DNA of 876 bases, taken from assembly GCF_003334255.1 (NCBI RefSeq), contig NZ_QOWU01000184.1; one strand, given 5' to 3'. Position 1 is the first letter of the stretch, and each line of letters opens with the position of its first letter. The position numbers were made by a program, and so were the translations under genes. The stretch is from Escherichia coli (GTDB lineage: Bacteria > Pseudomonadota > Gammaproteobacteria > Enterobacterales > Enterobacteriaceae). Below the pieces are notes generated by a model. It worked only from the letters and a program-made list of their open reading frames with translations, was not told the origin of the DNA and ran no database searches. Shown here piece after piece: positions 535-876 of the stretch.

Positions 535-876
535 TATGATGAGTGCTGTCACAACAGCATTACAGCCCCTGATAAGGGCATTGCCGGTGACGCCAGTTGA
601 ATGGGCTGATCAAAATTATTATCTGCCTAAAGAATCTTCATATGGTGAGGGAGAATGGAAAACGCTGCCGTTCCAGATCGCCATCATGAACAGCATGGGG
701 AATGATCAGATCCGGACTGTTAATCTGATTAAATCTGCCCGTGTTGGCTATACAAAGATGTTGCTGGGGGTGGTCGGGTATTTTATTGAGCATAAATCCC
801 GAAACAGTCTGCTTTTTCAGCCCACGGATTCTGCCGCTGAAGATTTTATGAAGTCTCACGTGGAGGCGACGATTCG
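506..876 (+). CDS. A: Phage terminase large subunit, lambda gpA-like, N-terminal fragment (123 codons plus 2 nt; continues past the window end)
   Basis: Frame 2 is open from the TGA at 437-439 to the window end, with ATG at 506. My translation is MNISEQQLNNMMSAVTTALQPLIRALPVTPVEWADQNYYLPKESSYGEGEWKTLPFQIAIMNSMGNDQIRTVNLIKSARVGYTKMLLGVVGYFIEHKSRNSLLFQPTDSAAEDFMKSHVEATI. It aligns without gaps to recalled lambda gpA (MNIS...AVEWADANYYLPKESAYQEGRWETLPFQRAIMNAMGSDYIREVNVVKSARVGYSKMLLGV...FIEHKQRNTLIWLPTDGDAENFMKTHVEPTI), including the identical MNIS start. This ORF is absent from the supplied track because it has no stop in the window. Confidence 0.92.
   Translation, partial: MNISEQQLNNMMSAVTTALQPLIRALPVTPVEWADQNYYLPKESSYGEGEWKTLPFQIAIMNSMGNDQIRTVNLIKSARVGYTKMLLGVVGYFIEHKSRNSLLFQPTDSAAEDFMKSHVEATI

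Follow-up and report, generated by a model that had tools for sequence, protein, structure and literature searches.

Predicted ATP site of a lambda gpA-type large terminase from a widespread Escherichia coli prophage lineage

A short segment (641–757) of the window, by which we mean the whole 876-nucleotide stretch of E. coli DNA analysed here, very likely encodes part of the ATPase domain at the N-terminus of a large terminase of the gpA type. The enzyme would come from a lambda-like prophage or phage that is widespread in E. coli, with residues 76–83 as the deviant Walker A loop of its packaging motor. The terminase is of the lambda gpA/Nu1 type and comes from a known, abundant and already annotated E. 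coli prophage lineage; nothing about it is novel. Its significance is small: a head module that is very common among E. coli prophages carries textbook lambda-type ATP-site residues. The case does carry a lesson of method, namely that a short catalytic motif is no proof of a live prophage when only the 5' end of its gene is visible.

Results

The window holds two plus-strand terminase genes. According to the list of open reading frames, the gene of the small subunit (Nu1 type, 169 amino acids) occupies 25–534, with a GTG start and a TAA stop at 532–534. The 5' part of the gene of the large subunit (gpA type) occupies 506–876, giving 123 complete codons and a frame still open at the window end. 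The two genes overlap by 29 nt (506–534) in different frames; lambda nu1 and A have the same arrangement with an overlap of 26 nt (NC_001416, our lambda reference throughout; nu1 191..736, A 711..2636). Translation of 506–874 from the ATG at 506 ran through 123 codons without a stop, and these residues matched the Pfam domain GpA_ATPase (PF05876, 4.8e-16). The large-subunit gene also matched PHROG families of terminase large subunits, at 1e-57 to 9e-73, and an NCBIfam search with both subunits returned zero matches. In the gpA reading the window ends at codon 123, so that Walker B, the catalytic Glu and the nuclease domain all fall beyond it.

The residue numbering of the ATP site depends on the ATG at 506, which is homologous to the GTG that starts lambda A at 711. 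Codons 11 and 12 are also in-frame ATGs (536–541), lie directly 3' of the small-subunit stop and are possible alternative starts. We favour ATG 506 over these as the likely start because lambda gpA also begins with MNIS and because RefSeq and GenBank copies are annotated from this ATG. On the minus strand, a 73-amino-acid antisense ORF (638–859) runs across the ATP-site bases. A non-coding or antisense feature under 641–757 was considered and rejected, as the minus-strand ORF is a purely mechanical entry in the ORF list and the plus frame is under strong purifying selection. An Rfam scan of the window returned only SNORD35 (531–618; 19.8 bits and E 0.14, below the gathering score of 36), a chance match, and nothing resembling a promoter or a terminator turned up in the window.

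BLASTP aligned the visible protein with residues 1–123 of lambda gpA at 80 of 123 identical positions (65%), with 0 gaps and an E of 4e-56. Judged by this sequence homology, which is far beyond chance, the gene is that of a lambda gpA-type large terminase, and because the alignment is gapless, lambda numbering transfers directly. The original prediction had assigned Tyr to codon 46 and KSARVGYTK to codons 76–84, and had given KSARVGYSK as the lambda counterpart. Read directly in the frame from ATG 506, codon 46 (641–643) is TAT and 731–757 reads AAA TCT GCC CGT GTT GGC TAT ACA AAG, which is KSARVGYTK. The lambda sequence and numbering given there proved exact when checked against lambda gpA (NC_001416), and BLASTP put Y46 on Y46 and KSARVGYTK on KSARVGYSK. 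The window is therefore identical to lambda gpA (TerL, NP_040581.1) at Y46, K76, S77, A78, R79, V80, G81, Y82 and K84, whereas position 83 is Ser in lambda and Thr here, and position 47 is Gln in lambda and Gly here. Y46 of lambda gpA reportedly makes contact with adenine, and K84 is said to be an ATP-contacting residue, both in work by Hang and co-workers in 2000 and Tsay and co-workers in 2009. In the window, the Lys84 codon (AAG, 755–757) directly follows the loop.

That the segment from K76 onward is a Walker A-like element, as had also been claimed, was borne out by the literature on lambda: residues 76–83 (731–754) match the published lambda Walker A, KSA-R79-VGYS at residues 76–83 (PMC6379665 Table 1), in which R79 is the conserved 'toggle' arginine, and lambda Walker B is VAGYD followed by the catalytic E179 (PMC6379665). 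The loop residues KSARVGYT fit the family pattern K-S-A-R-x-G-Y-[S/T]. They do not fit the classical GxxxxGK[S/T] pattern, with Tyr82 occupying the lysine position in G81-Y82-T83. Taken together with lambda, the family alignment and a structural model, the translation reads as a deviant Walker A, expected to work like the classical form without literally fitting its pattern. Just past the start of the post-loop helix lies a hypervariable patch at gpA residues 88–91 (767–778) with flanks that are identical throughout; it reads GVVG in the window, GVAG in phage PhiR12_1, GGGG in an O157:H7 copy, GVEA in the prophage L006 and GVYA in lambda.

To place these residues in their family, we aligned 104 near-full-length representatives with the query and lambda gpA (n = 106), following a homologue search of the full-length 642-amino-acid protein against 1.84 billion representative proteins. 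Most members were 29–45% identical to the query, with lambda at 67% and one other at 54%. The loop was strongly conserved, with G81 in 105 of the 106 members, K76 in 100 and R79 in 97; when the 93 visible positions (31–123) were ordered by conservation, G81 came 1st, K76 5th, R79 7th and T83 9th. Position 83 was Thr in 91 members and Ser in 15, so Thr83 appears to be the family norm and the Ser83 of lambda the minority form. K84 was present in 86/106. The lysine of the loop showed a complete swap: K82 occurred in only six members, all distant, which have S/T76, Q79 and K82 and thereby a classical xxxQxGK[T/S] loop, and K76 was absent from all six. This swap supports reading 76–83 as a phosphate-binding loop in which the lysine has shifted to the front end.

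Tyr46 behaved differently from the loop. It is identical to lambda, yet it is not a residue that defines the family at large: Tyr was found in only 34/106 members, with Ala, Ser, Gly or Gln in the rest, and it ranked 72nd of the 93 visible positions. Within a smaller set made up of lambda, N15, two variants of the E. coli prophage and the Pseudomonas phage CF24b, it did not vary. Gln57 (CAG, 674–676), 19 residues upstream of K76, was near-invariant at 102 of 106.

We then considered the predicted structure of the full-length copy from L003, a prophage whose window context is 100% identical and whose gpA has 642 amino acids, the first 123 of them identical to those of the window. The AlphaFold2 model had a mean pLDDT of 95.2 and placed a strand at 71–76, a loop at 77–81 and a helix at 82–95; in the model, this strand-loop-helix is the standard geometry of a phosphate-binding loop. 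The best PDB matches returned by Foldseek were all large terminases (Sf6 gp2, HK97, T4 gp17 and P74-26, with E from 6e-10 to 6e-5).

The model and the family alignment also bear on adenine recognition. Gln57 stands at the start of a predicted helix (55–65) that precedes the strand at 71–76, and residue 47 (644–646), Gly in the window and Gln in lambda, is highly variable across the family. In an hhalign comparison of the family with T4 gp17, F56-Q57 fell on Y142-Q143 and 77-SARVGYT-83 on 161-SRQLGKT-167, in a short and weak alignment (probability 4.8%, E 0.008) that was the sole one returned. The T4 gp17 mutant Q143A is an inactive motor subunit (PMC8589836). Because Gln57 is near-invariant and residue 47 variable, we put forward tentatively, and with rather more doubt than confidence, that in gpA-type terminases Gln57, not the position of Tyr46 and residue 47, may provide the 'Q motif' glutamine that recognises adenine, and that Tyr46 may be a lineage-specific auxiliary contact of the lambda-like subgroup.

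The window is common in E. coli. It found a match in 1,530 of 5,426 complete E. coli genomes; 522 records reach an identity of at least 99%, and many E. coli chromosomes carry a prophage that matches it at 100%. Five phages, PhiR12_1, _2, _2_star, _4 and _5 (PV340549-PV340554), are 99.5% identical to it in nucleotides; their records name MG1655 and E. coli C as hosts, and their gpA is 98.6% identical. In PhiR12_1, four base differences within the window lead to one change in gpA, V90A, outside the motifs. A literature search found no paper on the PhiR12 phages. These phages and the matching E. coli prophages (WP_001309424.1, WP_000235436.1) share both genes and all ATP-site residues with the window, and theirs is effectively the same gene.

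The L003 copy supplies what lies past the window end. Its gpA is 66% identical to lambda gpA over 639 amino acids and keeps VDVVCYDE (with D178 and E179), GST at 212–214 and the acidic residues of the nuclease; D178 is near-invariant and E179 invariant in the family. Both Pfam gpA domains are present, GpA_nuclease (PF20454) at 1.2e-71. The head and tail module of the L003 prophage is complete from terminase to tape measure, and the order downstream of the terminase (W, portal, protease/scaffold, decoration, major capsid) is that of lambda. In the early and lysis region of the same prophage there are several fragments of pseudogenes.

The exact conservation of the motif at lambda positions had been taken as an argument for a functional packaging motor and against a decayed prophage remnant. 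This inference failed, since motif identity is at background level and a window-identical copy with a deletion exists. Eight of the nine motif residues are identical to lambda, which has P = 0.12 at the overall identity of 65% and P = 0.26 at the 73% of residues 31–123. Because background identity predicts eight of nine, the motif match adds nothing beyond homology. The deleted copy is in prophage L011 of strain FDAARGOS_448 (NZ_CP023960), where 1801–2676 corresponds to window positions 1–876 at 100% identity. L011 has a 2,460-bp deletion (L003 13639..16098; junction 3438/3439) in which gpA from about codon 379 onward, with the nuclease domain, has been lost together with W and most of the portal gene; its gpA ORF has only 415 amino acids. 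This junction is present in 13 complete E. coli genomes. As the window is 100% identical in both kinds of copy, a nine-residue motif in the 5' end cannot tell whether a prophage is live or has recently suffered a deletion, and the window alone cannot settle whether its source copy is intact. PGAP labels the truncated L011 gpA 'terminase gpA endonuclease subunit'.

The source could accordingly be a decayed prophage that has a pristine terminase 5' end, a truncated gene or deleted head module, and motifs that serve no motor. L011 shows that a 100% window match is compatible with such decay, strain DP051 has kept the small subunit and merely 68 nt of A, and motif identity is no higher than background. 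Full-length copies nevertheless prevail: a match to the A gene with a coverage of 80% or more was found in 1,904/5,426 complete E. coli genomes and made up 1,908 of the 1,940 matching records, and the 13 deletion carriers compare with the 522 records at 99% window identity or more. Two other window-identical contexts that we inspected encode an intact gpA of 642 amino acids. Five variant gpA copies were likewise all intact, with identical Y46 and KSARVGYTK, and had whole-gene dN/dS of 0.058–0.132, which argues against decay; in the comparison with lambda, synonymous sites were saturated (pS 0.77) and pN was 0.24. We therefore think decay of the source copy quite improbable. A further reading leaves the gene intact in a prophage that is cryptic otherwise, where the terminase would owe its persistence solely to active phages, by recent descent or by recombination with them, and would be non-functional in its host. 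The pseudogene fragments of L003 support it, and a low dN/dS reflects the history of a lineage, not necessarily selection within each host. It is opposed by the complete head and tail module of L003 and by near-identical terminase genes in sequenced phage genomes with laboratory strains as listed hosts, and we give it very little credence.

The gene is thus probably that of a working motor in most carriers, on evidence other than the motif: function is likely in most copies because of the intact 642-amino-acid genes, the dN/dS of 0.06–0.13 and the phage isolates. The source copy is at the least very likely to be intact, and we infer that it is active.

The small subunit had a more mixed relation to lambda. 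It is annotated as a terminase small subunit (WP_000235436.1) and matched Pfam Phage_Nu1 (PF07471, 1.4e-18) over residues 49–150 only. Residues 73–164 are 46% identical to lambda Nu1 and residues 59–164 are 43% identical to N15 gp1; with lambda Nu1, only the C-terminal ~90 amino acids are common. The N-terminal ~70 residues (25–240, residues 1–72) gave no alignment to lambda Nu1 or N15 gp1. They open with TQTEVARHLSLTDRQLRRLQKL, which resembles a helix-turn-helix and hints that cosB may be recognised with another specificity. The cos site lies upstream of the window.

The divergence extends into the start of gpA. Codons 1–30 (506–595) are identical to lambda at 11 of 30 residues (37%), against 68 of 93 in residues 31–123. 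Nucleotide similarity to lambda, and to the prophage L006 with its different small subunit of 182 amino acids, begins only at window positions 588–591, and many of the A-gene matches in E. coli begin only at A-gene nt 83–91. We take the L006 small subunit to be phage-21-like. A mosaic boundary lies at about codon 28–30, and exchange seems to take in the small subunit together with the first ~30 gpA residues, as a single cassette. Lambda/21 hybrid work is reported to show that the gpA N-terminus binds Nu1, a role that fits such joint exchange.

Discussion

Read with the work on lambda and T4, from which the chemical role of each residue is taken, the ATP site of this terminase would be built as follows. 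K76 would be the phosphate-contacting lysine, standing at the start of the loop instead of in the classical GK[S/T] position, where Tyr82 is found. R79 would be the conserved Walker A arginine, and T83, in the classical Ser/Thr position, would bind magnesium. Y46 and K84 may flank the ATP site, and Q57 may be the conserved adenine-recognising glutamine. The motor would also need D178 of Walker B, the catalytic E179 and the G-S-T coupling motif (212–214), all past the window end. In the packaging reaction, the Nu1-type small subunit (25–534) would first recruit the enzyme to cos, and ATP hydrolysis would then drive DNA into the procapsid.

Besides lambda, N15 is among the closest known systems: its gp2 (AF064539) shares 66.5% identity with the full-length protein, and it carries Y46 and KSARVGYSK, with Ser83 as in lambda. 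N15 gp1 has 168 amino acids against the 169 of the small subunit here, and its N-terminal DNA-binding part does not align. The gpA gene of the window starts with ATG, that of lambda with GTG. In predicted fold, the closest proteins are T4 gp17, Sf6 gp2, HK97 and P74-26, which have a classical GK[S/T] loop where the present protein has K76 and Tyr82, and which share the Walker A arginine, a Walker B followed by the catalytic Glu and the conserved upstream Gln (PMC6379665 Table 1).

A search of the PDB by sequence, with the protein and with the family profile, found no gpA and no other terminase, and the profile matched only zinc-ribbon proteins. Over positions 231–278 the profile matched the TFIIS-type ribbon 1QYP (E 0.006) and ribosomal L44e (E 0.007). 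In the full-length L003 protein, outside the window, C240 and C243 are invariant in the family and C274 and C277 near-invariant, a pattern that points to a zinc ribbon with four cysteines as an insertion within the ATPase domain of gpA.
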